Below are positions 13,555-56,145 of a stretch of DNA of 64,000 nucleotides, piece by piece. Origin of the DNA: Clostridia bacterium (lineage in GTDB: Bacteria; Bacillota; Clostridia; TANB77; CAG-465). The DNA lies in NCBI GenBank assembly GCA_017626395.1, contig JAGAIU010000011.1, positions 20,917 to 84,916 on the forward strand, given 5' to 3'. Position numbers and translations under genes: made by a program. Below the pieces are notes generated by a model that searched no databases, was not told where the DNA came from, and worked only from the letters and a program-made list of their open reading frames with translations. Each line of letters starts with the position of its first letter. The first letter of the stretch is position 1.

Positions 13555-15744
13555 ATGGTAGTTGGAAAACCATATATTCGTTTTAAAGTCAATAATGAAC
13601 CAGTCCAAGCAGAAGTTGATTACAACTACACATGGGCAACTACTGTAGAAACTAATAAAGGACCAGTAAATACTCCTGTTTTTATTAGTAATGCAGCACA
13701 AGCGTATACTATATTTAATGTAGATATGCGTCCATATTTTGCTCAAAATCCTAAATCATTAATTATGATAAGGGTTGCTGCTAAAAGTAGGAATAAAGAA
13801 CCTTCTAAAGGTACATACAGTTTTACATCTGATAAAGATATGCCTGTATTTTTCACAGTTCAAGCAGAACTTAAAAAGACTGTTACTGAAGATGGTGAAT
13901 CAGTAGATTATACACATAAATTATATTATGCTGCTGTTGAAGTTTCAAATGGTACCACAACAAGTACTGAATACATTCCATTAATTGAGCATAGAACTAG
14001 TGCTGGTGTTCTTATTCCAGAATCTTATATTAGTGCATGGACAGATAATGGTCGTTTATCTGAAGCTAACGAAACAGCTATTAAAGCTGATGAAGAAAAA
14101 CCTATTGCTACTCAAGCTATCATTGATAGCATTGGTAAAGAAGATGGTATTACAAAAGCTGAATATGAAGCTACATACAGACAAGGTCTTAAAGATACTT
14201 TAATCTATTCTGCTGATAAAGTACAACCATTATTAATTCCACATAAATATGTTATCCCAGCTGGTACACCATTAATTACATTAACTGGTGACTATGAAGG
14301 AGATTATGGCGTATCTATTAGTTGTTCCGAAGCATTAGTTGGAGAAGGATATACTATTGTTATTACTGAACCTACATTAGGTACTTTAAGAATTCAAAAT
14401 GGATTCGATTTACAAAAAATTGCAAATCGTATTAACGATAAGAAATATAATGTAACTGCTACATTAACAAACGAAGGTCAATTAATTACAGCAGCTATGC
14501 ATGGTTATGCAAAACCAATAGAAACCCATAACGTTACAGTTGATGGACAAGCATTTTCATTAATTACTAGTCACATTACTGAAGATTCATTTATTTCATT
14601 ATCTAAAAATAAACAATCTGGTGCAATCAATTATTTGACTAAAGCAGATGTCGATGCTATTGCTGCTGATGTTAAAAATCAAACTAATTTAGCAACTGTT
14701 GAAGCAATTGATTACGCAATTAGTTTAGCACCTGCTGGACAACAATCTTTAGTAGGTGGTAGTAATGGAGAATGGGATGAAAAAGTTGGTAGAATCCCAG
14801 TTGAATATCAAGCTGATGCTCACGCAGAAGGATTAAAATTATTACAAAGAGTCAGATTAGCTGGTGTCTTTTGTATGTATGGTGAGGACGCAATTCAACG
14901 TGCATACAGGGAACATGGTATTAACTCCATTGAACCTGAAAAAGGTATGAATAATAACGAAACTTGCAAATGGAGAACAATTTTACTTGGTGCTAACGAA
15001 AATGATAGAACAGACGCTAGTAGTTTAGCAGCTAAAGCTGCTGCTTTAAATGATTCCTACACCTTATTATTAGGTCAAGGATTAATTGATTCTGGCTTCT
15101 CTGGTGTAGCATCTACTATGAGTGCTTCTGAAAGAAAAGTACTTGGTTTAATTAATGAACATCATTTATTACCATATGAATGTACTCAATACATTGCAGG
15201 ATTACGTAGTAAACTTGACTATGGTGAATCTATTTTCGGTGGTCAAGGTAGGAAACGTATTAGAAGCATTGGTAATTTAGATATTGCTCCATTATTCGAT
15301 TATGACGACTCATACGCATGGGACCCTAATACTTACACATTCTTAAATGAAAATGGTGTATTAACATTTACCGAAGAATATGGAAATATCACTCTTACTG
15401 ATGGTGTTACTACTATACAAAGTGGTAGTGAAGAAGATGAAGAAGGAGTCATGAATATTCTCAAATATACTCAAAATGCTATCTACGATGCTGTATTACC
15501 ATACATTGGTAGAAACATTAATGCTGATTTAGAAAACAGTATTAATATGGCTGTAGAATCTGTATTATCCACAATGAGAGATACAGACCAAACATTAATT
15601 GATACAGATGAATATTCTGCATATACTGTAGATATTAGTTTAGGCTCAAGGTCTAACCAATTATTAGGTAGAATTTACATTTACTTAACTATAACTCCAG
15701 TACATGCTTTAAGACAAATTGAAGTTGAAATGACAGTACAATAA
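13555..15744 (+). CDS. tail sheath protein (candidate)
   Basis: 729 aa. Lies immediately upstream of a tube-like gene, the chaperone pair and the tape measure protein. A baseplate J-like gene downstream indicates a contractile tail. No sheath motif verified. Confidence 0.45.
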   Translation: MVVGKPYIRFKVNNEPVQAEVDYNYTWATTVETNKGPVNTPVFISNAAQAYTIFNVDMRPYFAQNPKSLIMIRVAAKSRNKEPSKGTYSFTSDKDMPVFFTVQAELKKTVTEDGESVDYTHKLYYAAVEVSNGTTTSTEYIPLIEHRTSAGVLIPESYISAWTDNGRLSEANETAIKADEEKPIATQAIIDSIGKEDGITKAEYEATYRQGLKDTLIYSADKVQPLLIPHKYVIPAGTPLITLTGDYEGDYGVSISCSEALVGEGYTIVITEPTLGTLRIQNGFDLQKIANRINDKKYNVTATLTNEGQLITAAMHGYAKPIETHNVTVDGQAFSLITSHITEDSFISLSKNKQSGAINYLTKADVDAIAADVKNQTNLATVEAIDYAISLAPAGQQSLVGGSNGEWDEKVGRIPVEYQADAHAEGLKLLQRVRLAGVFCMYGEDAIQRAYREHGINSIEPEKGMNNNETCKWRTILLGANENDRTDASSLAAKAAALNDSYTLLLGQGLIDSGFSGVASTMSASERKVLGLINEHHLLPYECTQYIAGLRSKLDYGESIFGGQGRKRIRSIGNLDIAPLFDYDDSYAWDPNTYTFLNENGVLTFTEEYGNITLTDGVTTIQSGSEEDEEGVMNILKYTQNAIYDAVLPYIGRNINADLENSINMAVESVLSTMRDTDQTLIDTDEYSAYTVDISLGSRSNQLLGRIYIYLTITPVHALRQIEVEMTVQ

Positions 15745-15754
15745 GGTGATATGA

Positions 15755-16360
15755 ATGCCACACGCATATAAAAGTACAGACCCAATTAATGATTTTAATT
15801 TCTTTGAAACTGGATATATTATGATTGATGGTAATAGATATGATGTAGAAGAAATATCTATTAACACTTCACGTGATATGACTGAATATCATGTAGCAGC
15901 TCAAAGAGACCCAATCGACCATCGTCCTGGTAAAAACAAAATTGAATTCAGTATGAAAAGAGCATTTTCAGATGCAACATTATCTAATTTATATGATAAA
16001 TGTTGTGTGTTTGACTTACTCTTATTAAATAACGACGACCCAGATTCTGTACAACCTGTATTATTATTACAAGGTTGCAGATTAACTCAAGATAATATCG
16101 GACCTATCAATGGTTCTGATGTTGTATCTCAAGATTTAAGTGGTGTTGCACGTAGAAGAGTATGGAAGATGTGTGATATTAAAAATGCTCTTGAAAAACA
16201 ATGCTCTTACAGATGTCCTGATGCAACAGTATATGGAACCAATACTGGTGTAAGTACTCGTGTAACTCAAGACCCTGTTACAGATGCATACAATTTCGTA
16301 ACCAATACTGCTGGTCAAAAAGTAGACCACGCAAAAAGATTATTAAGAAACTTTATGTAA
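15755..16360 (+). CDS. tail tube protein (candidate)
   Basis: N-terminal YIMIDGNRYDVEEISINTSRDMTEYHVAAQRDPIDHRPGKNKIEFSMKRAF fits the phage tube/Hcp-like pattern (h-x-h-D-G...v-x-x-v...E...pG...h-x-h-KRg). Directly precedes the chaperone genes. RBS aggtga. Confidence 0.5.
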   Translation: MPHAYKSTDPINDFNFFETGYIMIDGNRYDVEEISINTSRDMTEYHVAAQRDPIDHRPGKNKIEFSMKRAFSDATLSNLYDKCCVFDLLLLNNDDPDSVQPVLLLQGCRLTQDNIGPINGSDVVSQDLSGVARRRVWKMCDIKNALEKQCSYRCPDATVYGTNTGVSTRVTQDPVTDAYNFVTNTAGQKVDHAKRLLRNFM

Positions 16361-16465: not shown

Positions 16466-16978
16466 ATGAGCAAAGAAAAACAAGCTTTAGGAGCTCCAGA
16501 AGGAGAACACAAAATTACTGCAAACAACGCAGACGAATTATTAGCTGAATTACAAGCAGAATCTAAAAAAACTTCACAAAATAAAAAGAAGAAAAAAATC
16601 GAAGATTATAAAGTAGTTCAAGCAACAAGAGAAATGCTCATCAATAGGAAAGGTCAAATATTAAATGTACCAATTATTATTGATAATGAAGAAGCATGGA
16701 ACTTTAAAGTAAGAAGAATTTCTGAAGCAGAAAATTCAGACATTTTAGATAGGACTTTAGCAGTAAAAAACTTCAATGAAATGACTCCTGAAGAACTTGA
16801 AGCTTCAAATGATTATAACTTTAGATTATTAGCATTATCTGTTGTAGAACCAAAAATGTCAGAAGATGAATGGAAAGGTGTAGTAGACGCACCAATGGCA
16901 AGAAAACTTGTACAACAAATCAGTAAAGTAATTACTGACGTAAATGCTGATGGAATCTTTGACGACTTTCAAAGATAA
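16466..16978 (+). CDS. tail assembly chaperone (G-like, candidate)
   Basis: 170-aa acidic protein between tube and tape measure. Its 3' end is overlapped by a second small ORF in another frame. Confidence 0.45.
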   Translation: MSKEKQALGAPEGEHKITANNADELLAELQAESKKTSQNKKKKKIEDYKVVQATREMLINRKGQILNVPIIIDNEEAWNFKVRRISEAENSDILDRTLAVKNFNEMTPEELEASNDYNFRLLALSVVEPKMSEDEWKGVVDAPMARKLVQQISKVITDVNADGIFDDFQR

Positions 16979-17156
16979 AATCACTAATTCAAATGAATTA
17001 AAAGTAGATTTTTTAATTTGTAAGTTTTTACATAAAACCCCTGCTGAAGTGTATGAACTAGAAAAACAAGGGTTATTAACTTTTGAACAAAAAGTTTTTA
17101 TTGCAGCAGGTATTGCATGGGACAATGAAAATAAATTTTGCCCATTTTTACAATAA
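16944..17156 (+). CDS. overlapping ORF, possible frameshift extension of the chaperone (GT-like)
   Basis: Overlaps the last 35 nt of the upstream ORF in the +1 frame. This is the conserved position of the G/GT programmed frameshift. No canonical slippery heptamer seen. Confidence 0.3.
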   Translation: MLMESLTTFKDKITNSNELKVDFLICKFLHKTPAEVYELEKQGLLTFEQKVFIAAGIAWDNENKFCPFLQ

Positions 17157-17175
17157 TACTCATTTCGCTACTTTA

Positions 17176-17212
17176 GGAGAGTTAACTGTTATAGTTGCTC
17201 TCCTTTTTTTTT
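17176..17212 (+). terminator. hairpin GGAGAG-n16-CTCTCC followed by T9
   Basis: ggagagttaactgttatagttgctctcc then ttttttttt, read directly, between the chaperone ORFs and the tape measure gene. Confidence 0.45.
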
Positions 17213-17238
17213 AAAATACACCCATAAAGAGAAAAACA

Positions 17239-20200
17239 ATGACAAGCTATAACACAATAGAAACACCACAGGATTATGTTAATTACACCTTTAATATAAG
17301 TAGTAGAGGTGTAACTGAAGTAATGGGAGAGATGGCTGGACTCTCTAATACTGTTACTACTATTTTAGGACAATTAGCTTTTAAAACATCAGAGTATTTA
17401 ACACATACTGAATCATTAACAATTAGTATGAGTACAGCTGCTATTGCAGCATATGCTTCTGCTACACAGGAAGCAATGAAGTTTGAACAACAAATTGCAA
17501 ATGTCCAAGCTATTGGTGGTGAATCTATTAATGCGATGGATATCGGTCAAGCAGCAATGCAGTATTCTAATCAATTTGGTATGAATATTAGTAACATGAC
17601 AGAAGGATTAGAAGCATTAGCTAGGGCAGGATTAACTGCTACTGATGTAATGTCTGGAGTATTAGAAGAGGGTGTAAAATTATCAAAATTAGAAGGTATT
17701 GATTTAGAAGATTCTATTAATAATTTAATATCTACTACTAACTTATTAGCTGAAGAAGATTATGATATTAATTCTCAAGAATATGCAGATGCAGTCAAAG
17801 CAATGAACCAACATATTGTATCTACTTCAGAAAGTGCACCAATTAACGCTGAAAATATTATACAATCATTACAACATGTAGGGGGATATGCTTCAGCCAA
17901 TAAAATAGACCAAGACGATTTATTTGCTGTTATAGCTCAACTTGGTGCAAAAGGTACAAAAGGAGAAATGGCAGGTACTGCATTAAGGGCATTTATTGCA
18001 GCTGGTCAAAAAGACCAAGCTCAAAGAGCATTAGCACGTATAGGATTAAATGTAAGTGATTTATGGGATGATAATGGAGAAGCAATGCTTCCTGTATCTG
18101 AAATGAAAGATGTTCTTGATAATGCATTAGAAGCTCGTGGATATTCTCAACAAGAAAAACTTGAATTTTATTCTGATTTTGCTGGTTATAAACAAGCTAA
18201 CCAAATTATGAAAATCGATACAGATGAGGTAAAAGAGTACAAAGAAACCATTAAAAACGCTTGGGATTTAGGTACTAAATTAGATACAATTTTAGGAACT
18301 ACTCAATCTAATTTACAAATACTTTTTCAAACTGTAAAGAATTTTATGACTCGTGTAGGGTCAACAATGTTACCAATTCTTAACGCTATTATTATTCCTA
18401 TTAAATTAGGTGTGCAATTACTTGATGCTATGCCTTTTAGTGAAAATATCGTCGGTATTTTATTAGGCGTTACAGCAATTAAAGGTATATTATTATTTAT
18501 TAATAGAGTCGTGCCAACTTTAGCTGGAATGTATACTGGATTATCTACTTCAACTAGTAGAGCTGAAGAAAATATGGGAAAAACACGTAAACATATTGGT
18601 GGAATAGTAGACGATTTGAGACAAGCAAAAGACATTTTTGAGCATATTAATGATAAAACATATTTAAGCCAAATACGTTTACAAAAAGGATTAATGGGAG
18701 AACAATCCCATCAAGTACATAAGGTTATTACAAGAGAAATTTATAATGATATAGCTGCTGGAAATCCTAATGTAGCTGATTTTGATGACTTAAGTTTCAC
18801 AGAAAAAGAAGTAGTCAGTAATATTATGGAAGCGTATAAAGATACAGACATATATCAAAATAAATTACATGCATACGTAAATAGGTTTAGAAATATGGGT
18901 GAATATATTGCAGAAGGTTTAACTAGTAATCAAAATGTTAAAACTAGTACTTCCAAACCTTTCAATGATAGTAATCAAGACATTAATAAAAGAATTAGTG
19001 AGCAAGCAAAAGCTATCGTTGATGGTACTAAAAAAATGTATGAAAAAGGACATACAATAGCTGAAGAAAATATAAAAGTTGACTACACAAATGATAGGCA
19101 AAAAGATATTGTAGATGCAATTTTAAATACAAAAGATTCTTTAGCTGAAGCGATTGGTAGGGCTGTCGTACAAAATTTAAATGTTGAAGAGACTTATGTT
19201 TCTGAAGGATTAGGCAGTTTTCAATTAGATAAAGTTAAATCTTCAAAAATTATTACCCAATTGCAAGAAATAGAAGATAATGTATCTGATAATCTTGGTG
19301 ATATAGGATACTTTTTAGATTATGATTTAGAGAAAATAGATAACTTACTTGCTAATGTAGGTTATGATTTACAAAATAAAATAAGTGCTTTTTCAAATAC
19401 CAATCCATCTTATATGAATAAAATGCAAAAAATGAGAATGGAGAAAATTATTAGTGGTGCTGCTAAAACCAATTTAGGAGCTCAATATTCATTAGAACAA
19501 AATAATATTGATGTTCTTGGTGTATTACGTGATGGTAAATGGAATGACCCAGGTAATGATAGTTTATTAGGTATACATGATAGACAAATGGAAGCTATGG
19601 AAAAAGCTTTAGATATGGATATTCAAAAAGGTGTAGAACGTACACAAAGACTTAATAATATACATACTTATCTACAATCTAAATATGAAGGAAATAAAGA
19701 TGAAAAAATTGCTGAAATCCTTCAAGAGACAGGTAAAATATGGGCGTCAGATATTGCAACACCACGACCAAGTAGAGAAGCAAGTAAATACTTAACAGAT
19801 ACACGAGCAACATTTATTGGTAATACATTAGGATTAAATGGTGTTGATTGGAGTCAAGTTGAAAATCCAGCTCAAGAATTGATAGAGTATTTTGCTGATG
19901 CATCAGAAAATGCTAAAAAAGCTAGACAATTGAAAAAAGCTGATGCATTAATGTTTTCCATTATGGAACAAGCTAAAAGTGAAGATGCTATTTTTAACCA
20001 AGCTGAATCCGACGAGCTTGGATATATTATTAGAAGATATAAACAATTATTATTAGCAAGAAATAAAAAAATAGAAGAAGAACTTGGTGTTAATACTATT
20101 ATTAACCCAAAGCATACCACATCAAATCCAGCAATTAAAAAAGCACTTGAAGGTAGTGCTTCTACATATGCATGGAATAGAATTCCAGAAATTAACAATG

Positions 20201-23200
20201 CTAACGAAAGGGTGTTAGATTTTCTTACTAATAGTGATATTCGTCTTGATAAAAATATTCCATTGTCTGGTTTTAATAGAAAAGGTATTGTTAGAATTAA
20301 TGATAATAGAACATCATCACCTCAATCTTTTGTTAATGTTTTAATGCATGAAATGGGACATGGATTGTTACAACATACATTACGAGGAGATATTGCTAGA
20401 AAAGATTTATCTTTACAAAAAGAATTACAACAACAAGGATTATATATTCCAGAGGCTTTATCAGTTGAAGGTAGTAAATTCGGTAAACCTATTGCAGAAT
20501 ATGAAACCGATTTATTATCAAAAATAGTATTATCAAATATGGGTCTGGATACATCTTTTCATGATAAAAGATTAGAAAAATTAGCATCAATTATTGAAAA
20601 AGATTATGGCTCTTTAGATGCTGTTAATATTGAATTGGTTGAGGCAACAGCAAAGTCTGTTATAGATAATCAAACAATGTTATCTGAAATAATAAGCGAT
20701 TTATTAAAACAATCCGAACATAGAAAAAACTTCCAAATTAGAGATGTTTTAAAAACTATAAATCCTTCTTATGAAGAGGAATATTCTTATTATAATGATT
20801 ATGATTTTGCTCCTAGTTTTGAAGAGATGAAGGAACGAGAAATACAACAACATTCTAAAGCAATGGATTATGATGAGAAAAAAGCAATAGGAAAAAAAGA
20901 ATCATTTTCTTTTAAAAATGTAGACTTATCTATTATTACAGAACCATTAAATGATATAAAAGAAAATATACAAAAAATAGCTGAAAGAATTGTACCATCT
21001 ACTAGTGCTTTAGATTTAGCGTATGGCTCATCATATAGTAATGTTGATAAAGATACACTTGATAGGCATACAGATGCTTTAAATAATCATGCTAAAGAAA
21101 TGCGTGAAACTCGTGAATTTAATGAAAAAGTGTTTAGTTCTTTTATTAATAAAGATGATGATAATACACCAAAATTATCAGAGCCATCAACAGATAATAA
21201 TCAATCATATATTGATGCTAAAGCTGTTGTTGTTGAAGATATAGATAATGATATTAATGATATTATTTATGATGAAATACAAGATATCTTTCCTGAAACT
21301 GACAGTATATATGGTATTGTGTATAATAAAATAAATGAAAGTTTTATTTCACAATTAGTAAAAAGTATAACACAATTTGATGATGTTATACAAAAAACAT
21401 CTTTATATTTAGAAAGTGGTACTAAATTACTTTTAACAAATAATCAATATATTCAAGATGTTATTAATGGTTTTATTATTATGGGGGATATGTTAAAAAA
21501 GAACAATAACATAAAATTGTTACCAGAAAAAATTTATCCTGATTTTACATTAAAAAATAACAGTTATGGTATTGAAGAGCAAGGCTCTTTACTGCAAACG
21601 TTAGATAAATATTCTCCATATGCAGATTTTATAAATTCACAAAATGATTTATTACAAATATCAAAAAATATTACAGATAGTCAATTAAAGCCACCTGTTT
21701 CATCAGCTATTAGAAGTCAAATTATAGGCAGATTATATAGGCAATCTCTTGGAGAAAGACAATTATATTCTGAACCTATTGGTCCTATTCCAGCACAACC
21801 AGTCTCAAAAAATACATATGCATTTGGAGCTACTAAATTAGGGGCATACGAGAAACAATATAGATTATTAGCAAATGGTGGTATATATTCATATCCTATT
21901 GGTCCACAGCAATTAAATAATCCCCCATTATATCCAAATGTAGGTATAACACAATATCAAAAACCGATTGGACCATCACCAGCGATTACAGATTTAGATA
22001 AATATAATCAATATTTAGCTATTGAAGAAGAAAATAAACGTATTAAGAGAGAACAAGAACATCAAGCATATATTAATATGCAGGCAAAAGCTACAGAAGA
22101 ACTTATTGGTATTACTGAACGATATAATAAAAAAATACAAAGACAAAAAGAAGTAAATGATGCCATTGCTAAAGTTCGTAATCAAAGATACCAAGACTAT
22201 AAAAAAGAACGACAAGCATTATTACAATTAGCATTTGCTCATGATATTTTTATTGAAAAACAAAAACCAGTACAGATAAAAAGCCCACAAGGTGTTTTAC
22301 AAGCATCTCCACAATCTGCACCAACAGGTGAATTTACTATCTTAAAACAAGCTCAATTTTTCCCTGGTTTAGATAATAATTATTATCAATTCTTAAATGA
22401 TATTCAAAATCAAAAAGAAATAGAAGAACAAAATAGAAAAAGAGCAGCTGCTTTACGATATGATGCTATCACACAAGCAGAACAATATGCTTCTACATAT
22501 GCTCAATTATATCCTGAATATATTAACCCAGAGTATATAGAAGCATCACAAGTAATGAATCAAAAATTTAATCCTATATCAGCTTTTGTAAAACGTAACC
22601 AACAATATGATACTCCAATTGGACCATTACCTGCGATAGAAACTAATACTCCCTTATTAATTGATAGTCATTTAAATGGACAACATGAAAGAGCACAAAC
22701 AGCATTACAAAGATTACAAGAGAGAAGAAATCAGCAACTTCAAGACAATGCATATACTCCAAGTATGGGTACGTATTATGCACAAATATGGGATTATTTA
22801 CCACATGGTGTTGACCCAGAGCCAATTAAACGAACAGCTTTAGAACAAGCAGCTTTAATAAAGAAGCAAAATGAATCTCTTGAAAATCAGCAAAAAGAAT
22901 TTTTAAATATTGCTAATATTGTATCTGAACAATCTGAATTAGAAGAACAAAAAAAGAAACAACTAAAAGCAGCAAATAAATCTATTGAACAAGCAAAACA
23001 AGCATATGATGATTTACTCGTTATAGCAAATTCAATTACACAAGATATTAAAATACGATATGCACAAGGAGAAACTTTAACTAATGGAGAAGTATTAGCA
23101 TTAGATGATACAGAAAAAACAGTTAATGGTAAAACTTTAAAAGGTGCTCGTAGTACAGAACTTGAAAGGAACCCACAAAGAGTAATGTCTATGATGTTTG

Positions 23201-25737
23201 ATAGATTTGAATTAGAACAATCATCTAATCAAAGATTAAGACAACCATTATCTATAATAGAAAGAAATGCATATGTTGCTACTGCAATGATGTATAATAG
23301 TTTTGAGAGACAAAATCAAAAAATTAATAGTTTCTTAATGATGGTTGTTCAACTGCTTGATAATATTTATAAGGTACAAAGTGGTGCAACATTATTAGAA
23401 TCAGGTGAAAAAGAAGACTTTATAGAAACCAGACTTGCTACAGAAGAAGATATAAAAACAAAACATAGTGCACGTACAACAGTTGATATACGAGGTGGTG
23501 TAGCATATGGTGGTACAGAAGAAGATGTACGTGCACAAAAAGAAGATTGGGAAGAAAATTGGGAACCATTATATAAAGAAAGAATATATTGGCAACAAAA
23601 AGCTCAACAAATTAAAGATAATTTTATTAATGCAGGTAAATCAGTAGATGATTTTATTGATAAAAAACTTGAAAGATTTAGTGATGACCCAGCAAAAATA
23701 GGTGATGCAGCACAAAAAATGTTAACTTTTACTACTAGATTAGAAAATTTTCAAGATGCTATGACAAAAGCAGGTGAAATTTTTCCACCATTTTTAGCAA
23801 TAGCTGCAACTATGCAAGGGATTATAGGAGTACTATCTTTTATAACAAGTGGATTGGCAACTGCTGAAACTATTTTAACAGCAGCAAGAATGATAAACAC
23901 AGAAATAACTCAAGAAGAAGCCAAAGCCGAAGGAAAAGAAGCTGCATGGAATATGGCACAAAAAATTAAAAAATATACAGCAGGTCATGAAAATATACAA
24001 AAAATTATAGATAAAGGTTCTAGATATGCAATAAAAGCTAGTAATGCTATTATGAAAGGAGCTGATAAAGCTATAGGTTTTATAGCAAGTAATATAGAAA
24101 TTTTAGGACCAATTGCAGCAGCAATAGCAGTTACTGTTGGAGCATTATGGTTATCAGAGCAATCACATGCAAAAGCACTTAAAGAAGCAACAGAAGAACA
24201 AGAAAAAGCAATGAGTGCTACTAAAACAAGTTATATAGAATATCAAAATATTCATAATGCACGAAAAGCCGAAACAGATGCAATGAAACGTCAACAATTA
24301 GCACGTAAAGAATCAATTGCATTATATAGACTTGAAGCAGATAGAGCAAGACAATTAAACGCTATCAATAAAAAATCAGAATTACGTAATGATGCATTAT
24401 GGGGTGAATATGGAATAAGAGCTGCAATGCAAAAACAAGGTCTTGGTTTTATTGCTGGTGGCGACTTCCAATCTCAATATGAACAATATGAAGGCTCTAC
24501 TGGTGAAATTAGAAGAATCAGAGAAGATGTATTAGATGGTAGTTATACTAGCAGTCAAATACAAGTTGCTGGATGGTATGATGCACATGTTCAACAATTA
24601 GGACAAATAGAAGCTTTTGCACCTGAATTACAAGAATTATATGATACTGAAAGTCGATTAATAGATAAATATGGCTCTCAAGAAGATGCAAGAAATTCAA
24701 AAGAATTTAAAAAAGCTGTTCAAAAATTTGCTGATGCTACAGGTTTAAATGAAGAAACAGCCAAAAAATATTTAGATTATTTACAAACTGAAGCTAATGT
24801 TGAAAATGCAAGAAAAGCTATGCAAGCACAAGTTAATGTAATTACATCTGAAGCACAAGCAAATGCATATAAGATTATTTATGGCGATGAAGCTGGAATA
24901 GGGGATATGGAAGGTGTTCAAGATGCTATGGTATATGCTACAGCTGACCAAATATTTAAAGATGCATATCAAGAAATGTGGTGGAGTATGTTAATGGAAT
25001 GGCTAGCAGCTATTTGGAATCAATTAACATTAAACTTTGGAGAAGCAGATAAACATGCAAGAGCAGCAGGTGCATATCAAGATGGAATGAAAAAATTAGT
25101 TGAAAATCAAGGACGTATCACCGAAGAAGGTGTAGAAATTGCTCGAGCAGACCAAAGAAAAGATTATGGAAACGAGAAGTATTCATATTATGAAGATACA
25201 CCATTTGGTGGAGCAATTGCAAGTTCAGAAGCTATGAAACAAGATTGGGCAATTGAAGGTGATAGTGGATATTATAATGCTTCAGAATCTAATATTACAG
25301 CATCAAATTTAAATATACAAAAAGATGTTAGTGAATCTTTAGATAATTATTATTCAGAAGTACCATCAACAAAAGAAAATTATAATGATATAAACGAATC
25401 ATTTTCAAAAGCTGATATGAAAACATTTAAAAACTTTGGTAGGTCTTTTGAGAAAGTGTCTAATAAAATACCTATGTATGGAAATAAAACAGAAATTCAT
25501 ATTCATAATTTAAATATTAATACAGAAGATGACCCAGAAAAAATGGCTACAGAATTTAGAAGGCTGCTTGTAGATATGGGAGACCAAATGGTACCACGTC
25601 AAGTATCAAGAACAGTAGGTAAACCATCAGAGACATCAAACACTACACAAGAAGATAACCAAACAAATAATAATAATGCAAATAATAATAATGCAAATAA
25701 TAATAATGTAAATAATAATAATGCAAATCCAAATTGA
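17239..25737 (+). CDS. tail tape measure protein (2832 aa) with an embedded HExxH zincin-like motif
   Basis: Position after the chaperones. Very long, helix-rich and Q/E/K/A-rich. Internal hydrophobic segments at aa 375-435. LMHEMGHGLLQH at 20344..20376. Four PIGP-containing repeats. C-terminal (NNNNA)x4. Confidence 0.7.
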   Translation: MTSYNTIETPQDYVNYTFNISSRGVTEVMGEMAGLSNTVTTILGQLAFKTSEYLTHTESLTISMSTAAIAAYASATQEAMKFEQQIANVQAIGGESINAMDIGQAAMQYSNQFGMNISNMTEGLEALARAGLTATDVMSGVLEEGVKLSKLEGIDLEDSINNLISTTNLLAEEDYDINSQEYADAVKAMNQHIVSTSESAPINAENIIQSLQHVGGYASANKIDQDDLFAVIAQLGAKGTKGEMAGTALRAFIAAGQKDQAQRALARIGLNVSDLWDDNGEAMLPVSEMKDVLDNALEARGYSQQEKLEFYSDFAGYKQANQIMKIDTDEVKEYKETIKNAWDLGTKLDTILGTTQSNLQILFQTVKNFMTRVGSTMLPILNAIIIPIKLGVQLLDAMPFSENIVGILLGVTAIKGILLFINRVVPTLAGMYTGLSTSTSRAEENMGKTRKHIGGIVDDLRQAKDIFEHINDKTYLSQIRLQKGLMGEQSHQVHKVITREIYNDIAAGNPNVADFDDLSFTEKEVVSNIMEAYKDTDIYQNKLHAYVNRFRNMGEYIAEGLTSNQNVKTSTSKPFNDSNQDINKRISEQAKAIVDGTKKMYEKGHTIAEENIKVDYTNDRQKDIVDAILNTKDSLAEAIGRAVVQNLNVEETYVSEGLGSFQLDKVKSSKIITQLQEIEDNVSDNLGDIGYFLDYDLEKIDNLLANVGYDLQNKISAFSNTNPSYMNKMQKMRMEKIISGAAKTNLGAQYSLEQNNIDVLGVLRDGKWNDPGNDSLLGIHDRQMEAMEKALDMDIQKGVERTQRLNNIHTYLQSKYEGNKDEKIAEILQETGKIWASDIATPRPSREASKYLTDTRATFIGNTLGLNGVDWSQVENPAQELIEYFADASENAKKARQLKKADALMFSIMEQAKSEDAIFNQAESDELGYIIRRYKQLLLARNKKIEEELGVNTIINPKHTTSNPAIKKALEGSASTYAWNRIPEINNANERVLDFLTNSDIRLDKNIPLSGFNRKGIVRINDNRTSSPQSFVNVLMHEMGHGLLQHTLRGDIARKDLSLQKELQQQGLYIPEALSVEGSKFGKPIAEYETDLLSKIVLSNMGLDTSFHDKRLEKLASIIEKDYGSLDAVNIELVEATAKSVIDNQTMLSEIISDLLKQSEHRKNFQIRDVLKTINPSYEEEYSYYNDYDFAPSFEEMKEREIQQHSKAMDYDEKKAIGKKESFSFKNVDLSIITEPLNDIKENIQKIAERIVPSTSALDLAYGSSYSNVDKDTLDRHTDALNNHAKEMRETREFNEKVFSSFINKDDDNTPKLSEPSTDNNQSYIDAKAVVVEDIDNDINDIIYDEIQDIFPETDSIYGIVYNKINESFISQLVKSITQFDDVIQKTSLYLESGTKLLLTNNQYIQDVINGFIIMGDMLKKNNNIKLLPEKIYPDFTLKNNSYGIEEQGSLLQTLDKYSPYADFINSQNDLLQISKNITDSQLKPPVSSAIRSQIIGRLYRQSLGERQLYSEPIGPIPAQPVSKNTYAFGATKLGAYEKQYRLLANGGIYSYPIGPQQLNNPPLYPNVGITQYQKPIGPSPAITDLDKYNQYLAIEEENKRIKREQEHQAYINMQAKATEELIGITERYNKKIQRQKEVNDAIAKVRNQRYQDYKKERQALLQLAFAHDIFIEKQKPVQIKSPQGVLQASPQSAPTGEFTILKQAQFFPGLDNNYYQFLNDIQNQKEIEEQNRKRAAALRYDAITQAEQYASTYAQLYPEYINPEYIEASQVMNQKFNPISAFVKRNQQYDTPIGPLPAIETNTPLLIDSHLNGQHERAQTALQRLQERRNQQLQDNAYTPSMGTYYAQIWDYLPHGVDPEPIKRTALEQAALIKKQNESLENQQKEFLNIANIVSEQSELEEQKKKQLKAANKSIEQAKQAYDDLLVIANSITQDIKIRYAQGETLTNGEVLALDDTEKTVNGKTLKGARSTELERNPQRVMSMMFDRFELEQSSNQRLRQPLSIIERNAYVATAMMYNSFERQNQKINSFLMMVVQLLDNIYKVQSGATLLESGEKEDFIETRLATEEDIKTKHSARTTVDIRGGVAYGGTEEDVRAQKEDWEENWEPLYKERIYWQQKAQQIKDNFINAGKSVDDFIDKKLERFSDDPAKIGDAAQKMLTFTTRLENFQDAMTKAGEIFPPFLAIAATMQGIIGVLSFITSGLATAETILTAARMINTEITQEEAKAEGKEAAWNMAQKIKKYTAGHENIQKIIDKGSRYAIKASNAIMKGADKAIGFIASNIEILGPIAAAIAVTVGALWLSEQSHAKALKEATEEQEKAMSATKTSYIEYQNIHNARKAETDAMKRQQLARKESIALYRLEADRARQLNAINKKSELRNDALWGEYGIRAAMQKQGLGFIAGGDFQSQYEQYEGSTGEIRRIREDVLDGSYTSSQIQVAGWYDAHVQQLGQIEAFAPELQELYDTESRLIDKYGSQEDARNSKEFKKAVQKFADATGLNEETAKKYLDYLQTEANVENARKAMQAQVNVITSEAQANAYKIIYGDEAGIGDMEGVQDAMVYATADQIFKDAYQEMWWSMLMEWLAAIWNQLTLNFGEADKHARAAGAYQDGMKKLVENQGRITEEGVEIARADQRKDYGNEKYSYYEDTPFGGAIASSEAMKQDWAIEGDSGYYNASESNITASNLNIQKDVSESLDNYYSEVPSTKENYNDINESFSKADMKTFKNFGRSFEKVSNKIPMYGNKTEIHIHNLNINTEDDPEKMATEFRRLLVDMGDQMVPRQVSRTVGKPSETSNTTQEDNQTNNNNANNNNANNNNVNNNNANPN
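25668..25727 (+). repeat. 15-nt tandem repeat (aataataataatgca) x4 encoding NNNNA at the tape measure C-terminus
   Basis: aataataataatgcaaataataataatgcaaataataataatgtaaataataataatgcaaat. Confidence 0.7.
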
Positions 25738-25747: not shown

Positions 25748-26692
25748 ATGTCTAATACTACAGGAAATTATACTGCACCATCACCATCTGATGATTATAG
25801 TGGAGAACCAGTTACAAATGCAAATGATGAAGAATTACAGTCAGAATTAGAAAGTGATGCATCAGCTGATGAAGCTGGAGATAGAGAATTAAATTTAGAT
25901 TCATCTACATGGGATGGAATGCAAAGTGGAGCTATTGAGCCAGGATATAAATCTACACAATCTCATAATTGGTTAGAAACTATACCAGATGCATATAAAG
26001 ACCAAGCTCGTGAATGGAGTGCTCAAAGAGGAGTTATAAAAATTACTCCTATAGAGCAAAGACAAAAATTCACATATGCAACTGTTGCATATATAGCAGA
26101 CAAACAAGAAGAGCCAAAAACCCAAATTTTTCCTATTGTAGATTTGAATAATACTCCACACCAAATTACTTGGGATTTTTACGATAGCACAGAAGGTCGT
26201 ATCGGTGTATCTAATGCAGTTGAAAAATATCAAACATGCACCTTTGATGTTTATTTAACAGAATTATTGGCTACATATTGGGCTTTTGGTGAAAATGATA
26301 AATATGATTATGGTCTACCAACTTATCCTAATATGAAACGTAGATGGTGGCGTGCTGTTGAAAATGGTACATATTTAGATTTTGAAGCAGATATAGAATC
26401 CACTAAAGAATTTATTGATTTCAGAAATACTTTCTTGCAACAGCATTTAGGTTGGGTTTGTAGATTTGCTAGTCATACTTTTGGAGTATTTCAAGGTGTT
26501 ATAAGTGATGTAAAATATACTATTGGTGCTGGTGAATCATTTGCAAAATGGAGCATTGAAATTAAAGAAGCAGTTTTCCTACAAGATGCATACTCAACAA
26601 AAGGAAAAAAAGAAGAAGTAGAGACATCAGGAGGAAGCGAAACAGATTCAGGTGATGCAGCTGCAACAGAAGACGTAGCAACAAGTGGGTAA
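25748..26692 (+). CDS. hypothetical tail/baseplate protein
   Basis: 314 aa with acidic low-complexity N- and C-termini. First gene after the tape measure. Confidence 0.4.
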   Translation: MSNTTGNYTAPSPSDDYSGEPVTNANDEELQSELESDASADEAGDRELNLDSSTWDGMQSGAIEPGYKSTQSHNWLETIPDAYKDQAREWSAQRGVIKITPIEQRQKFTYATVAYIADKQEEPKTQIFPIVDLNNTPHQITWDFYDSTEGRIGVSNAVEKYQTCTFDVYLTELLATYWAFGENDKYDYGLPTYPNMKRRWWRAVENGTYLDFEADIESTKEFIDFRNTFLQQHLGWVCRFASHTFGVFQGVISDVKYTIGAGESFAKWSIEIKEAVFLQDAYSTKGKKEEVETSGGSETDSGDAAATEDVATSG

Positions 26693-26696
26693 TTAA

Positions 26697-28136
26697 ATGA
26701 TTAATCGAAGTCGTAAAAAAACACAATATGTATTTAATTCTAAAACTGGCAATTTAGAAAAATTAAACAATATCAAAGATATACAAGATGCTGCCAATGA
26801 ACAAGAAGATATTAAACCAATAACAAGTATAGCATTAATTACGTCAGAAGATAATTTAATACATAATTATTTTACTGTATACGAAACATCATGGGACGCA
26901 AGTAACGTACTACAAATTGTCACATTAAAAATGCCAAAACTAAATGCAGAAAATGTTAACTACTGGGCAACATATACTGGACAAGTTACCATATATATGG
27001 GTAGTGGATTTACTTATGATTACGTAAATGGAACTGGACATACTAATGAACAAGAAGCTGCTGAATCATTAGTAAAATACTGGGATAATTCTAATATTAA
27101 ACCTTTTTTTAGGGGCGAAGTAGACCATATAAAAGAAAGGCATACTGAAGTTGTTGTTTATATTAAAAATATAGGTAGTAGGTTTCAGCAAAAAATTCCT
27201 GAAGATTTTAGACAACAGTATATATATAATCAAAATGTAAGAGATAGTTTTCAAGCTATATGTGAATTTTTAGGAGTTCCTTATATATGTCCACCAAAAA
27301 CTGTAGTTGATGCAGCAGGCGAAGAAACAACTGAAAATAACCCATCTGGTGATGGTAATGAAAACGATGTAGGTTCACAAGTAGGTAGTGAAGCTCAATT
27401 AGCTAATACAGCTAAAAATATTGTTAAAAATGCCAATAATCAATTATATAATAAAGATAAAAATACTATAGCTAATAAATCAAATAATGACGAAAATACT
27501 GATGAAAGTACTGAAGTAACAAATGAAAATGGTAATATTAGCGATAATGTAGTTAATGATATCATAAATGGATATGATGATATTAGTTTTGATGCTAATG
27601 GTGCTATTATACATGGCTCTACTCTAATAGAAACAAGTCCAGATATGGCTCATACATTAGTAGCTATGGAAGAACACCCATTTGAAAAATATTTAGATGA
27701 TGAGACTGGAATCATTGAGAAAGTAAATAATTTCTTAAATGGTGAAATATTTGAAGAATTACATAATAACGTAATGGATTATGGAGCAATAACAATAGAA
27801 CCGAAAAGCACAACAACATCAACACCAACAACCGATTCATCTCCAACAAATAGTCAAAATGGAACAAGTGAAAATAATAATAATTCAAATTCACAATCAG
27901 GTTCTAGCAATTCATCTGCAAAAGCAAAATCATCATTACAAGCAAGAGATAGAAATGGTTGGCACAATGGACAATATTATATTAATGGAAAAATTTATTT
28001 ATCAAAAGAATACATTAATTCCTTAAGTCCTGAACAAGCAAGACAAAAAAGAACTGGAGCTTATGCAAATCATACATACACCGATGATACAATGCAAAAA
28101 TTGTTATGGAGAAGTTTAGGTTCAACATTGAGGTGA
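26697..28136 (+). CDS. hypothetical baseplate protein; paralog of 29886..30800
   Basis: Shares NIGSRFQQKIPEDFRQ...DSFQAICEFLGVPY versus NLGWKFLQKMPMDFRK...DAFQDICSFMGVEC, and EDNLIHNYF versus EDNLAHTYM, with ORF 29886. N/S/T-rich linker. Confidence 0.4.
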   Translation: MINRSRKKTQYVFNSKTGNLEKLNNIKDIQDAANEQEDIKPITSIALITSEDNLIHNYFTVYETSWDASNVLQIVTLKMPKLNAENVNYWATYTGQVTIYMGSGFTYDYVNGTGHTNEQEAAESLVKYWDNSNIKPFFRGEVDHIKERHTEVVVYIKNIGSRFQQKIPEDFRQQYIYNQNVRDSFQAICEFLGVPYICPPKTVVDAAGEETTENNPSGDGNENDVGSQVGSEAQLANTAKNIVKNANNQLYNKDKNTIANKSNNDENTDESTEVTNENGNISDNVVNDIINGYDDISFDANGAIIHGSTLIETSPDMAHTLVAMEEHPFEKYLDDETGIIEKVNNFLNGEIFEELHNNVMDYGAITIEPKSTTTSTPTTDSSPTNSQNGTSENNNNSNSQSGSSNSSAKAKSSLQARDRNGWHNGQYYINGKIYLSKEYINSLSPEQARQKRTGAYANHTYTDDTMQKLLWRSLGSTLR

Positions 28137-28140
28137 TATC

Positions 28141-29889
28141 ATGACAGATGACAATAAAAATGAAGAAGATGAAAATCAAGATAATCAACAAAACAATAAC
28201 CAATCAGTTAGTAATTCAAAAAACGTTGTTATTGGATGCGATAAGAATAATGGTGATGACAGTAAATGTCAAGACACAGTTAAGCAAGTATTAGAACAAG
28301 CAGGTTATAAAACAGAAACATTAGCAATTGACCCAAATGCTTATGCAAGTTATTCTTACACAGGTGATGCTAAAGGAAAAATTGGCGTTTATTTAATGGC
28401 TGGTAGTTTAATATCTTTTTTAGATGGGGCAAGTGATAATTTTGATTATAATATTTTCGGTATCAGAGGAGATGTATCAGATAGTTTAGGTAAAAAAGCA
28501 GGTTTTGAAAAAAATGGAGTACCAAAAGACCATCATGGTGATTGTACCATAGCCGAATGTGATAAATATCAAGGTAAAACATATCCAGAATTGAATGAAA
28601 TATATAAAGATAGATGTCAAGCAGTTCCTGGTGATACTATCGATGAATTGGCACAAAATATATTAGCTGCAATTCAAGGAAAAGGTTTTACTGGTGGTGG
28701 AGCTGGAAATACTGTAAGTTCTGGTGGTGGAGCACAAATAAAAGATAAAACATTTGAAAAATGTATTCGTCGAATATGTGCTGCAACAGATTCTGTTTTT
28801 CTTGTTGAAAATAATGCTGCTGTATTATTTCCTTATACAGATTGGTTAGCTTTTACATTAAGAGAAAAAATTAGTATTATTACACCAAAAGAAATAGACC
28901 CTGATGTATTCTCTATGGAATATCATAATGAAGGGACATATAATAAGGTTAGTATTGCTTGGGGTGGAGCTACATTACCAAATCGTTTTCCAGATAATCC
29001 ATTAATGCAAGAAAAATATAATGAAAAAATAAAAGCACAAACTGAAACTATTAAAAAGAATGGAACAACACAAAAGAATAAAACAGCTGAAGATGGAACA
29101 AATATTCTTTCTGAACAGTACGATATATTAGTAGATAAATATGGTGAACTTGAAAAAAGAATAGAATCACCAGTAGACAACTATGAAACAGCACAATATT
29201 TAGTAAATGCATTATTAATTCAGTACGTACGTGATTTTAATAATAGTTGCGAATGCAGAGCATTAGGGAACAGAAGATACATAGGTGGAACATTTTACAT
29301 AGTAACCAATCCTTTTACTTACGAACAAGAAATGCTATACCTAAATGGATACACAGTAAGAACACAAAAAGACGAACCAATATATTTTGATTTAGACTTT
29401 AGATATGGACCAGAATCAGCCGAAGAATTATTAGACTATCAACTATATACAGGTGGTAGTGGAGCTTCTGGTGGTGGTTCATCGTCAGCAGGAATGGGCA
29501 CATCAACAGAAGCAGAGATATGGGAACATGCAAGTAAATTCTGTCATTTCTGGTCATGTGGTGAATTACGTGAAGCCGAATCAGATACAAACGACCCACA
29601 AGTAGCAGCAGATTATGTAAAGAAAAAAGAAGAGGCTAATACGCCAAAAATCTGTTTATCATGTTATGGTATGAGTGCATGGTTATACTATTACTTTAAT
29701 AACCAAGCTAATATTCCATGTCGAGTTATTTTTGGAGGAGGGCATAAAGTAGTAGAGCTTTACAAAGATAATAAATGGTATAAGCCTATTGACGAATATA
29801 GAAAATTAGATGAAGGTTTTCGATATAACGATGCATGTAAATCTGACAACGTAGAAGTTACATTGCAGCCACCAGGAGGTCCTAAATGA
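28141..29889 (+). CDS. baseplate-associated protein with C-terminal Pei-like transglutaminase-fold cysteine peptidase domain
   Basis: CLSCYGMSAWLYYYFNNQANIPCRVIFGGGHKVVELYKDNKWYKPIDEY has the Cys-His-Asp arrangement. Q/N-rich N-terminus. Lies in the baseplate block. Confidence 0.5.
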   Translation: MTDDNKNEEDENQDNQQNNNQSVSNSKNVVIGCDKNNGDDSKCQDTVKQVLEQAGYKTETLAIDPNAYASYSYTGDAKGKIGVYLMAGSLISFLDGASDNFDYNIFGIRGDVSDSLGKKAGFEKNGVPKDHHGDCTIAECDKYQGKTYPELNEIYKDRCQAVPGDTIDELAQNILAAIQGKGFTGGGAGNTVSSGGGAQIKDKTFEKCIRRICAATDSVFLVENNAAVLFPYTDWLAFTLREKISIITPKEIDPDVFSMEYHNEGTYNKVSIAWGGATLPNRFPDNPLMQEKYNEKIKAQTETIKKNGTTQKNKTAEDGTNILSEQYDILVDKYGELEKRIESPVDNYETAQYLVNALLIQYVRDFNNSCECRALGNRRYIGGTFYIVTNPFTYEQEMLYLNGYTVRTQKDEPIYFDLDFRYGPESAEELLDYQLYTGGSGASGGGSSSAGMGTSTEAEIWEHASKFCHFWSCGELREAESDTNDPQVAADYVKKKEEANTPKICLSCYGMSAWLYYYFNNQANIPCRVIFGGGHKVVELYKDNKWYKPIDEYRKLDEGFRYNDACKSDNVEVTLQPPGGPK

Positions 29890-30800
29890 TTAATTTATCA
29901 AGTATTTCATTACATAATTCAGTAGGCATTATAACACTTGAAGACAATCTTGCACACACATACATGATAGATACATACGTTGATGTAGATAATAGCTTAC
30001 CAGTTGGATATGCTCAAGTAATATTCCCATATAATAGGGATATTTTAAAATATTGGACTACTTATAATGGCATTGTTATTATTCACAGTAAATTATTACC
30101 TAAAGACACAAATAATCAAGCAATTAATAACTTACCTAATAGTTCACTTAAAAGTAAAAGTATAGAGCAGATTAAAACTCATAAAGATAAAAATAAGATT
30201 GTTATTGAGCAAGATTATAATTATTCTTTTATTGGACGTATACACAAAGTTAAACATGCTGGTAAGAAAATTATCGTTAAATTAGAAAATTTAGGATGGA
30301 AATTTTTACAAAAAATGCCAATGGATTTTCGTAAAGCATATGTAGCATCTAAACCAGTTGGAGATGCTTTTCAAGATATATGTAGTTTTATGGGAGTTGA
30401 ATGTGCATATAATAAAGAAGAATTAAATAAATATTCTTTTGCAGCTGATGGGTATTCAATTGAACTAAATGGAGAAATTATTGAAGAAACACCAAGTTAT
30501 CTTGCTGAAGTAAAAAGTCTTGACCAAGATTTAGCAGATGGATTAAGTGATGGGACCAACGAGTCAGGTGATTTACCAAATATGAAAAAAAACAACAATG
30601 ACGCCCAACAACAAAATACACAAAATAATCAACAAAATAATACTTTAAAATCTACAGAAAATAAGGATACAATAGATGAAGACTTTGAAGAAAAAGTACA
30701 AAATTTATTCCAAGGAAATACCATTTATAATTCTGATTTAATTTCAAATGTATTAAATTATGGTAATATTACTTCACATACAACGACAAACGAGGAATAA
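29886..30800 (+). CDS. hypothetical baseplate protein; paralog of 26697..28136
   Basis: See the paralog motifs above. C-terminal Q/N-rich tract NNNDAQQQNTQNNQQNN. Confidence 0.4.
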   Translation: MINLSSISLHNSVGIITLEDNLAHTYMIDTYVDVDNSLPVGYAQVIFPYNRDILKYWTTYNGIVIIHSKLLPKDTNNQAINNLPNSSLKSKSIEQIKTHKDKNKIVIEQDYNYSFIGRIHKVKHAGKKIIVKLENLGWKFLQKMPMDFRKAYVASKPVGDAFQDICSFMGVECAYNKEELNKYSFAADGYSIELNGEIIEETPSYLAEVKSLDQDLADGLSDGTNESGDLPNMKKNNNDAQQQNTQNNQQNNTLKSTENKDTIDEDFEEKVQNLFQGNTIYNSDLISNVLNYGNITSHTTTNEE

Positions 30801-30802
30801 TC

Positions 30803-32281: not shown

Positions 32282-33409
32282 ATGGTAGAATTAATAATTA
32301 ATGATGGTACTAATATATTAGATAATTTATGGCAAAATTTAATTAGCGTAGGTGCTAGAACTCGTCGACATGATAGTTCACATACAGGACTTTTATTTTC
32401 AGCAATTGCAACTGAAATAAATGTTGCAATTAGTTTATTACAGTCATACTCTAATCAATACTCATTAGATACTATGACAGATAAAGTATTGATTGAAAAT
32501 ATGTCCAGTCAATACGCTATTCGTAGATTAGCAAGTAAATCAAAAGCTATATTAACTTTTTATCGTATGGAAGGATATACAGAAGGGATTAGAATACCTG
32601 CTGGTTTTGCAGTAAAAGCTTCTGTTCCTGGTAATATTATATTTAAAACAGTATCAGATGTATATTTAAATAAAGGTACACAATCAGTCTCTGTTATGGC
32701 ATATTCATTAAATTCAGGTACACAAAATAATGTTGATGCATATACATTAACTATATGTGCTGACCCAAATTTTAATACAATGTTTGGTGTAACCAATAAA
32801 GAACCATCATTTGGTGCTTATAATGATGAATCCATATCCCATTTACAAGAAAGAGCTAAATCTTTTAGATGGGCTACAGAATACACTCAAAGAGATATAG
32901 AAAACCATATGTATCAAGTTGGTTTAACTGGTAGTGATTTCATGTTAGAAGAGTATATTGATGGTCCTGGTACTTATATGATTTGTGTAGATACAGATTC
33001 AGATTATGCTTTTGATGATGTTGTTAGCAGAATATCATATTATCATAATCGTGGAATACAACCTGTATATGTACGTGCTACAAGATTATATATTGATATG
33101 TACATTACAGTACAAACAGCACATGAAGTGGATTATACTCCAACAGAAAAAAATTCAATTTATAATAATATTAATAATGCGATACAAAGATTCTTTGCAG
33201 CATATTGTGCTATTGGAACTGATATTCGTATTAACGCATTAAAAGCAGCTATTAATAATGCATTAAGTGGTTATGATATTGCTGATGTTGAAGTAGACAT
33301 AGCAAATTCTGTTGTCGTAAATAAACGTAATGTTGTAGAAATTGGTAATACAACAAAAGCATATCCTAATAAAATTTTAACATCATTAGAATACGTAGGG
33401 GGAGAATAA
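32282..33409 (+). CDS. baseplate J-like protein
   Basis: KSKAILTFYRMEGYTEGIRIPAGFAVKASVPGNIIFKTVSDVYLNKGTQSVSVMAYSLNSGTQNNV resembles the gpJ/gp6 pattern (A-G-x-V-x-F...IPaGt-x-V...F-x-t...V-x-A-x-x-G-x-x-gNV). 375 aa. Confidence 0.5.
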   Translation: MVELIINDGTNILDNLWQNLISVGARTRRHDSSHTGLLFSAIATEINVAISLLQSYSNQYSLDTMTDKVLIENMSSQYAIRRLASKSKAILTFYRMEGYTEGIRIPAGFAVKASVPGNIIFKTVSDVYLNKGTQSVSVMAYSLNSGTQNNVDAYTLTICADPNFNTMFGVTNKEPSFGAYNDESISHLQERAKSFRWATEYTQRDIENHMYQVGLTGSDFMLEEYIDGPGTYMICVDTDSDYAFDDVVSRISYYHNRGIQPVYVRATRLYIDMYITVQTAHEVDYTPTEKNSIYNNINNAIQRFFAAYCAIGTDIRINALKAAINNALSGYDIADVEVDIANSVVVNKRNVVEIGNTTKAYPNKILTSLEYVGGE

Positions 33410-56141: not shown

Positions 56142-56145
56142 AATA

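Follow-up and report, generated by a model that had tools for sequence, protein, structure and literature searches.

ArdC, the anti-restriction protein of plasmid R388, has a C-terminal metalloprotease domain (PDB 6I89/6SNA; Pfam PF18818, MPTase-PolyVal) in which H201, H205 and E229 are the metal ligands and E202 is the base (PMC7213743). Among metals, ArdC preferred Mn, Ni and Co. MPTase domains are the commonest module of proteins that are injected with DNA, and self-processing or attack on host proteins has been proposed for them (PMC5512222). Tape measure proteins (TMPs) fill the lumen of the tail tube, are the first to leave it on infection, preceding the DNA, and may include enzymatic domains (PMC6116005). 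Here, a predicted ArdC-like zincin domain is described in the middle of the TMP encoded by a 64,000-nucleotide stretch of contig JAGAIU010000011.1 (assembly GCA_017626395.1), referred to below as the window. Residues 975-1158 of this TMP very probably form a genuine minimal gluzincin metallopeptidase domain of ArdC/MPTase fold and type. A literature search found no description of a zincin or metalloprotease in a TMP.

The TMP, its core and the segment under study are as follows (aa, amino acids; ORF, open reading frame).

17239-25737, + strand: TMP, 2832 aa, uninterrupted ORF (ORF list and translation, Pfam, NCBIfam and PHROG matches, gene order)
17548-18120, + strand: PhageMin_Tail (PF10145) core of the TMP, aa 104-294
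20161-20712, + strand: predicted ArdC-like zincin (MPTase-type) domain, 184 aa, aa 975-1158
20347-20388, + strand: extended invariant motif HEMGHGLLQHTLRG, aa 1037-1050 (sequence, invariant alignment columns, codon comparison)

ORF 17239-25737 is a tape measure protein. PF10145 matches aa 104-294 with E=2.5e-17 and 63.8 bits (cut-off 33.2), TIGR01760 matches with E=1.9e-18 and 66.6 bits (cut-off 28.8), and five PHROG families named 'tail length tape measure' match down to E=1e-28. The gene lies between the sheath, tube and chaperone-like genes and the gene for baseplate J, so that profile matches and gene order place the product in the TMP class.

A preliminary description of this DNA had reported a canonical zinc-metallopeptidase signature about 1035 residues from the N-terminus of the TMP, and H1037, E1038 and H1041 are indeed present within the single 2832-aa ORF. 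Positions 20344-20376 read ATG CAT GAA ATG GGA CAT GGA TTG TTA CAA CAT in the frame of ORF 17239-25737, i.e. MHEMGHGLLQH, in which the last two residues are Q1045 and H1046. The position first given for LMHEMGHGLLQH, 20344-20376, has the correct motif and frame and is one codon short at its 5' end, the leading L1035 being encoded by 20341-20343. By analogy with H201, E202 and H205 of ArdC (PMC7213743), H1037 and H1041 are predicted metal ligands and E1038 is the predicted general base.

The simplest alternative is that an HExxH arose by chance in a helical, low-complexity TMP with no domain behind it. The TMP contains one HExxH, as compared with 0.031 expected from its composition, and 2.9% of 20000 composition-preserving shuffles of the protein contain the motif. 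When all stop-free stretches of 100 aa or more in the window are considered, one further HExxH is found; it sits in the integrase ORF and is evidently fortuitous. The bare HExxH alone is not significant and is weak evidence by itself. The case for a domain therefore rests on conservation and structure.

Homologues were sought by an exhaustive HMMER (phmmer) search over 1.84 billion representative proteins and by a subsequent profile search. The phmmer search returned four matches (P0001, P0002, P0003 and P0004). P0001 (2686 aa, 82% identity) and P0002 (3567 aa, 37% identity) are both TMPs, and they lie in sheath-tube-TMP-baseplate modules syntenic with the window. The profile search added P0005, a 221-aa product that is 54% identical and represents a fragment of a fourth TMP, on scaffold L001. 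These three are the only real homologues of the domain found among the 1.84 billion representatives; every known carrier of the domain is thus a TMP of one small virus clade.

The remaining matches were discarded. P0004 is a low-complexity false positive. P0003 (139 aa) would have been a stand-alone homologue without the glutamate helix and was rejected because its contig is a metagenomic chimera of three unrelated proteins. This 1913-bp ENA contig encodes a P0011-like N-terminus, 52 residues of the TMP zincin domain and a P0006-like C-terminus, joined at the short shared words LNRKGD and NSGLY. P0003 seeded six spurious profile matches, and these satellites, P0006-P0011, were dropped with it.

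On scaffold L001, the TMP homologue is split over three ORFs that overlap and lie in different frames, and the zincin domain is a 221-aa product of its own. At the first junction (3163-3175) there is a 13-N scaffold gap; the second (about 3813-3841) has no run of N in the stretch read and may reflect an indel or be real. A free-standing 221-aa protease gene was not accepted, the split being at least partly an artefact in view of the gap at the first junction.

Other searches did not extend the family. No match was obtained when the region was compared with GenBank phages by blastn and tblastn, when a single 334-aa segment was used in a word-indexed protein search, or when IMG/VR, GTDB genomes and JGI metagenomes were queried with either the entire TMP or the domain profile; in the PDB, neither sequence nor profile searches rose above noise. 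The nearest GenBank TMP is that of Methanobacterium virus PhiF1, with 24% identity over the N-terminal part. The PhiF1 protein lacks the zincin domain and contains no HExxH.

In the alignment of the four lineages, the domain is 90%, 52% and 35% identical to that of the window. H1037, E1038, H1041, L1044, H1046, the following T, L and R, and G1050 are invariant, as are E1077, G1078, G1082, P1084, the following I and A, E1087 and E1089 further downstream. These residues form two conserved blocks, HExxHxxLxHTLRG and EG...GxPIAExE, the second lying 40-50 residues downstream of the first. The codons of conserved residues have changed synonymously (CGA, AGA and CGT for Arg; GCA, GCT and GCG for Ala; GAA and GAG for Glu), and the ratio of nonsynonymous to synonymous substitution rates (dN/dS) is 0.25 relative to the closest relative. 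The conservation across all four lineages lifts the HExxH above chance. The motif is thus kept in every homologous TMP found to carry the domain, where its loss would have spoken against the preliminary description. That description had also proposed a comparison with the TMPs of other Methanobacteriales viruses; in the PhiF1 protein, the entire domain is missing.

The trimmed domain (aa 975-1158) was modelled with AlphaFold (AF2), and secondary structure was assigned by DSSP, with elements given in domain numbering. The model has a predicted local distance difference test score (pLDDT) of 92.4 and a predicted template modelling score of 0.90; the five models reached pLDDT values of 92, 88, 87, 83 and 69. 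It contains the following elements.

20191-20232, + strand: N-terminal helix of the zincin core, aa 985-998 (DSSP H11-24)
20236-20298, + strand: three-stranded beta-sheet region, aa 1000-1020 (DSSP strands 26-29, 37-38 and 43-46)
20320-20367, + strand: active-site helix with HExxH, aa 1028-1043 (DSSP H54-69, HExxH at 63-67, pLDDT >90)
20374-20475, + strand: helical insert, 8 residues shorter in P0002 (DSSP H72-81, H83-91 and H102-105; alignment gap)
20488-20538, + strand: predicted glutamate helix, aa 1084-1100, with the invariant PIAExE, PIAEYE in the window (DSSP H110-126)
20554-20709, + strand: C-terminal three-helix bundle, aa 1106-1157 (DSSP H132-149, H157-169 and H171-183; pLDDT 85-98)

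The order of the elements, H-E-E-E-H(HExxH)-insert-H(Glu), is the zincin topology: HExxH lies on a helix, an N-terminal helix and a mixed beta-sheet precede it, and a conserved Glu is found on the next helix. The model is thus a confident alpha/beta fold rather than a helical coiled coil, which upholds the proposal of a zincin-type domain over that of a stray motif. The preliminary description had advised looking for a third zinc ligand downstream, and candidates for it exist. E1087 (20497-20499), which is invariant and stands at the start of the next long helix, is likely the third metal ligand; E1089 (20503-20505) or the invariant H1046 are alternative candidates. A chance origin of the HExxH is contradicted by the 14-residue block and the second block conserved in all homologues, by the confident fold and by ArdC as the top structural match. 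It is refuted by these data and its residual probability is negligible.

The metalloprotease domain of ArdC ranks above the other zincin families among the structural matches and is the closest solved relative of the TMP domain. In both, a helix is followed by three strands, the HExxH helix and the Glu helix. By eye, HEATHWTGHKSRLD of ArdC and HEMGHGLLQHTLRGD of the TMP domain share HExxH, then His, then RxD, and the spacing of E229...G244-L245 in ArdC equals that of E1087...G1102-L1103 in the TMP. ArdC enters the recipient cell with DNA, as the TMP would, judging from TMPs generally (PMC6116005). The two domains differ in that their identity is only 13%, the TMP domain has an insert about 20 residues longer between the catalytic helices and an additional C-terminal helical bundle, and the single-stranded-DNA-binding ArdC-N domain is absent. 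Furthermore, the TMP domain is located in the tape measure of an archaeal virus, not in an anti-restriction or primase protein of a plasmid or phage.

Comparison of the domain profile with a profile of 21 ArdC-family sequences by hhalign gave a score of 25 (P=0.003, probability 9-10%). The strands and HExxH are placed in register with their counterparts, and the Glu helix is offset by 4 residues with a compensating gap. None of 150 column shuffles reached a score of 25. An alignment with the single ArdC sequence was misaligned and was not used.

The preliminary description had likened the motif to minimal zincins of the ImmA/IrrE and DUF4157 types. All sub-threshold Pfam matches to the HExxH segment are zincins (M78, M43, M91 and SprT-like), and the best of them is indeed Peptidase_M78 (PF06114), the ImmA/IrrE family, with 17.6 bits and E=0.0036, below the gathering score of 22 and in two of the four members. 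Like the TMP domain, M78 is a minimal gluzincin with a His a few residues after HExxH; the match covers a strand and the HExxH helix, and M78 is a structural neighbour of ArdC. M78 proteases are stand-alone regulators encoded beside repressor genes and are not known as virion proteins. DUF4157 does not appear, at E up to 10, among the matches of the TMP, of the 334-aa segment or of the members of the homologue alignment, in searches whose HMMER filters drop many matches above E of about 0.1. Membership in either family was rejected on score. The domain is ArdC-like in fold and motif logic. With all Pfam models below threshold, it represents a new sequence family, in a new architecture, and not a demonstrated member of PF18818.

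The domain is probably catalytically competent, and the virus probably carries a protease into or against the host on the protein that leaves the tail first. As a working interpretation, which we favour only tentatively, this would be an ejected protease acting on the TMP itself or on host proteins. The zincin domain would travel in the tail tube as part of the TMP and would be latent in the virion, because a folded 20-kDa globule in several copies could not fit a lumen about 4 nm wide. Sheath contraction would expel the TMP ahead of the DNA, and the expelled domain would then refold, bind metal and work as an endopeptidase on protein. Its likeliest substrate would be the TMP itself, in which self-cleavage could detach the conserved, membrane-inserting block at the N-terminus from the hypervariable middle; the other likely substrate would be host proteins encountered during entry. 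The parts of the TMP concerned are given below.

18367-18516, + strand: first cluster of hydrophobic (membrane-type) segments, aa 377-426 (Kyte-Doolittle)
20716-22608, + strand: hypervariable middle, aa ~1160-1790, directly after the zincin domain (identity drop)
23779-24156, + strand: second cluster of hydrophobic segments, aa 2181-2306 (Kyte-Doolittle)

The hydrophobic segments were called with a 19-residue window and a value >1.6; the two clusters flank the zincin domain, one on each side. The conserved N-terminal block of the TMP (aa 1-1156) ends with the domain, and the C-terminal block is conserved too. Identity between the window and P0001 is 86-90% in both flanks and 22-30% in the middle, which is not alignable to P0002. 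The middle could be a ruler or spacer, or a fast-evolving cargo. That the region just downstream of the domain is swapped between close relatives supports a role in delivery or processing of the kind outlined above, as does the observation that the TMP has no pseudomurein-binding repeats (PMBR), which this virus does use on a separate wall enzyme (see below).

In its layout, the TMP resembles the phage 'polyvalent proteins' with an MPTase, such as P1 DdrB and the N4 virion RNA polymerase: a zincin lies mid-chain in a very large virion protein delivered with DNA, with variable inserts between the catalytic helices and rapidly varying sequence adjacent to it (PMC5512222). Polyvalent proteins differ in being head-internal or transferred by type IV secretion systems and in having several recognisable enzymatic domains, whereas the carrier here is a tape measure with no second detectable enzymatic domain; the term 'tape measure' does not occur in PMC5512222. 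The specific proposal that the TMP doubles as a 'polyvalent' injected protein, bringing an ArdC-type protease through the contractile tail into the archaeal cell and there freeing the middle as cargo or destroying host defence proteins, is possible and at present rather doubtful.

Several observations weigh against the interpretation of the domain as an ejected ArdC-type protease. The alignment behind the AF2 model comprises only 4 sequences, and an initial model that included longer flanks was of poor quality, with pLDDT 65; fold searches with that model were uninformative except for ArdC at rank 6, and Foldseek found nothing. The convergence of H1037, H1041 and E1087 on one metal site is inferred. 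The probability given by hhalign is only about 10%, all Pfam, NCBIfam and PHROG models stay below threshold on the domain, and PF18818 matches none of the four members at E up to 10 (gathering score 27.5 bits), while ArdC itself matches this model with 164.8 bits and 1e-48. ArdC is a protease without a known substrate, and its activity (the catalytic Glu) is dispensable for the measured phenotype (PMC7213743). Release of cargo is made less plausible by the lack of any recognisable effector domain in the variable middle of the three full-length TMPs (Pfam). Finally, no wall-degrading domain was recognised in the hub and baseplate proteins encoded by 25748-33957, and a wall-directed role would fill that need.

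The dispensable glutamate of ArdC also bears on whether the TMP domain is an enzyme at all. The zincin fold could have been kept in the tail for contacts between proteins or for binding metal, for instance as a plug or an assembly checkpoint, with no catalysis. Inactive metallopeptidase homologues are common (PMC11266112), and with only four sequences known the invariance of the motif is a limited test. Against this, both His residues and the Glu of the motif, as well as the Glu on the helix after it, are preserved in every lineage, including the one with 35% domain identity, and with synonymous codon turnover. Pseudoenzymes usually lose at least one catalytic residue. A pseudo-peptidase is thus considered quite improbable.

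The role first suggested for the domain was the cutting of peptide cross-links in a pseudomurein-walled host during penetration by the tail tube, with an ejected effector as the alternative. That the host has pseudomurein is supported, since the window encodes a Pei lysin; in addition, the nearest GenBank relative of the TMP comes from a Methanothermobacter virus.

58604-59491, + strand: pseudomurein endoisopeptidase (Pei) with PMBR (PF12386 Peptidase_C71, E=9.4e-15; PF09373 PMBR, E=2.9e-12)

PeiW and PeiP (Peptidase_C71) are the known viral enzymes that cut the peptide links of pseudomurein. Their homologue in the window is encoded by a gene separate from that of the TMP and, being of a cysteine peptidase family (MEROPS naming) with PMBR, is unrelated to the TMP domain in fold and catalytic type. 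The Pei gene shows that the virus has a wall peptidase separate from its TMP. The Pei gene is located downstream of the integrase gene (52468-53547); beside it, 55710-56988 (- strand) encodes a PTH2 peptidyl-tRNA hydrolase and an RlaP nucleotidyltransferase of an RNA repair pathway.

A virion-associated wall peptidase would be the archaeal counterpart of the muralytic TMP domains of T5, TM4 and phiIPLA35, the expelled domain cutting pseudomurein peptides locally and so opening a way through the wall for the tube or the DNA channel. Several phage TMPs carry wall-cleaving domains, and those of T5 Pb2, mycobacteriophage TM4 and S. aureus phiIPLA35 resemble the present case in that an enzyme within the TMP reaches the envelope at the start of infection (PMC6116005). 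Besides the precedent and the host wall, the hub and baseplate proteins, with no wall-degrading domain recognised, leave room for such a role. Pseudomurein peptides consist of L-amino acids, which leaves a general endopeptidase scaffold possible. The TMP domains of T5, TM4 and phiIPLA35 are glycosidases, Rpf-like or M23-type wall hydrolases and are not known to be HExxH zincins. No such family matches this TMP in Pfam, and neither a wall hydrolase (lytic transglycosylase, M23 or Rpf-like) nor a PMBR was found in this TMP, P0001 or P0002. No other wall-binding module is present in the TMP, and no wall hydrolase is among the structural neighbours of the domain. The domain lies in the middle of the TMP and not at a terminus, whereas the muralytic domain of T5 Pb2 lies at the tip-proximal end. 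PhiF1, a related Methanobacteriales virus, has a TMP without the domain. Cutting of pseudomurein is the main rival reading but is less favoured and is judged unlikely, because the domain has no pseudomurein-binding repeat beside it and because its nearest relatives, ArdC and the MPTase group, have their targets among the cytoplasmic proteins of the recipient; an ejected effector fits the evidence better.

A further alternative is cleavage in cis within the producing cell. The domain would fold there and trim its own TMP chain before the tail is assembled or while assembly is under way, as in the conversion of lambda gpH to H*, so that the mature tail would hold only part of the 2832-aa chain. 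Tail length is approximately 0.15 nm per TMP residue by rule of thumb. TMPs of 2686-3567 aa would then correspond to tails of ~400-530 nm, unusually long for a contractile tail, and processing would ease this oddity. Autoprocessing by the MPTase before packaging has been proposed for P1 DdrB (PMC5512222). On the other hand, there is no evidence of processing sites, and the N- and C-terminal blocks are both conserved, suggesting that both are needed in the virion. Computationally, cleavage at assembly is indistinguishable from cleavage after ejection. A maturation protease is regarded as very unlikely.

The TMP gene is part of a contractile-tail structural module. The other genes assigned in the structural region are listed below.

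4100-5695: large terminase
5695-7053: portal
9214-10404: capsid (putative major capsid protein)
13555-15744: sheath
15755-16360: tube
32282-33409: baseplate J

A CarboxypepD_reg/PEGA Ig-like domain is present at the C-terminus of the putative major capsid protein (aa 328-394) and is lacking from the product of the capsid gene (305 aa) in the relative encoding P0002. Between the tube and TMP genes, 16466-17238 comprises a 170-aa ORF followed by a 260-nt gap, a layout as expected for a frameshifted pair of tail assembly chaperones; in L006, an additional 63-aa ORF is called over the 3' end of the equivalent of the 170-aa ORF. The P0002 virus has a GIY-YIG endonuclease gene (L002, 8536-9123, - strand; also in L003 and L004) inserted in the opposite orientation between its tube and chaperone-like genes; neither the window nor L006 has this gene. 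Within the variable middle of the TMP, the motif Y-x-x-PIGP-x-P occurs four times (aa 1513, 1553, 1576 and 1793; about 21775-22630). The C-terminus of the TMP, NNNNANNNNANNNNVNNNNANPN (25666-25734), is Asn-rich, and P0001 and P0002 end in similar N/T/Q-rich tails. The baseplate genes are directly followed by a giant ORF of 3815 aa (34009-45456). Its counterpart in the relatives has Big_3_5 Ig-like domains, and the product is probably a receptor-binding protein or an adhesin-like fibre; more Big_3_5 proteins are encoded at 45573-46916, 50456-52306 and 59660-60871.

The fold and catalytic logic of the domain are known, and its sequence family, its carrier protein and the host domain in which it occurs are new. 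ArdC-type MPTases occur in 57 GenBank phage records, under anti-restriction, primase or similar genes or in unannotated records, and in none of the 57 under a TMP. If the TMP does double as an injected 'polyvalent' protein, its protease would be the first counter-defence or self-processing enzyme of the ArdC/MPTase type known from a tail tape measure, and archaeal viruses would have their first example. The finding would not change a paradigm; whichever substrate is cut, it adds a sequence family absent from current domain libraries. Hardly anything is known of the way in which tailed viruses of methanogens cross the pseudomurein wall and establish infection, and the domain is a small, expressible candidate for an enzyme of the entry stage and thus a testable handle on that process. 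Were it to cut pseudomurein, it would represent a second class of pseudomurein peptidases, metallo-enzymes besides the Pei cysteine peptidases, with relevance to the control of gut and rumen methanogens. If it is directed at proteins, the 'effector delivered with the DNA' strategy of phages and plasmids would extend to archaeal viruses, with the TMP as the delivery vehicle.

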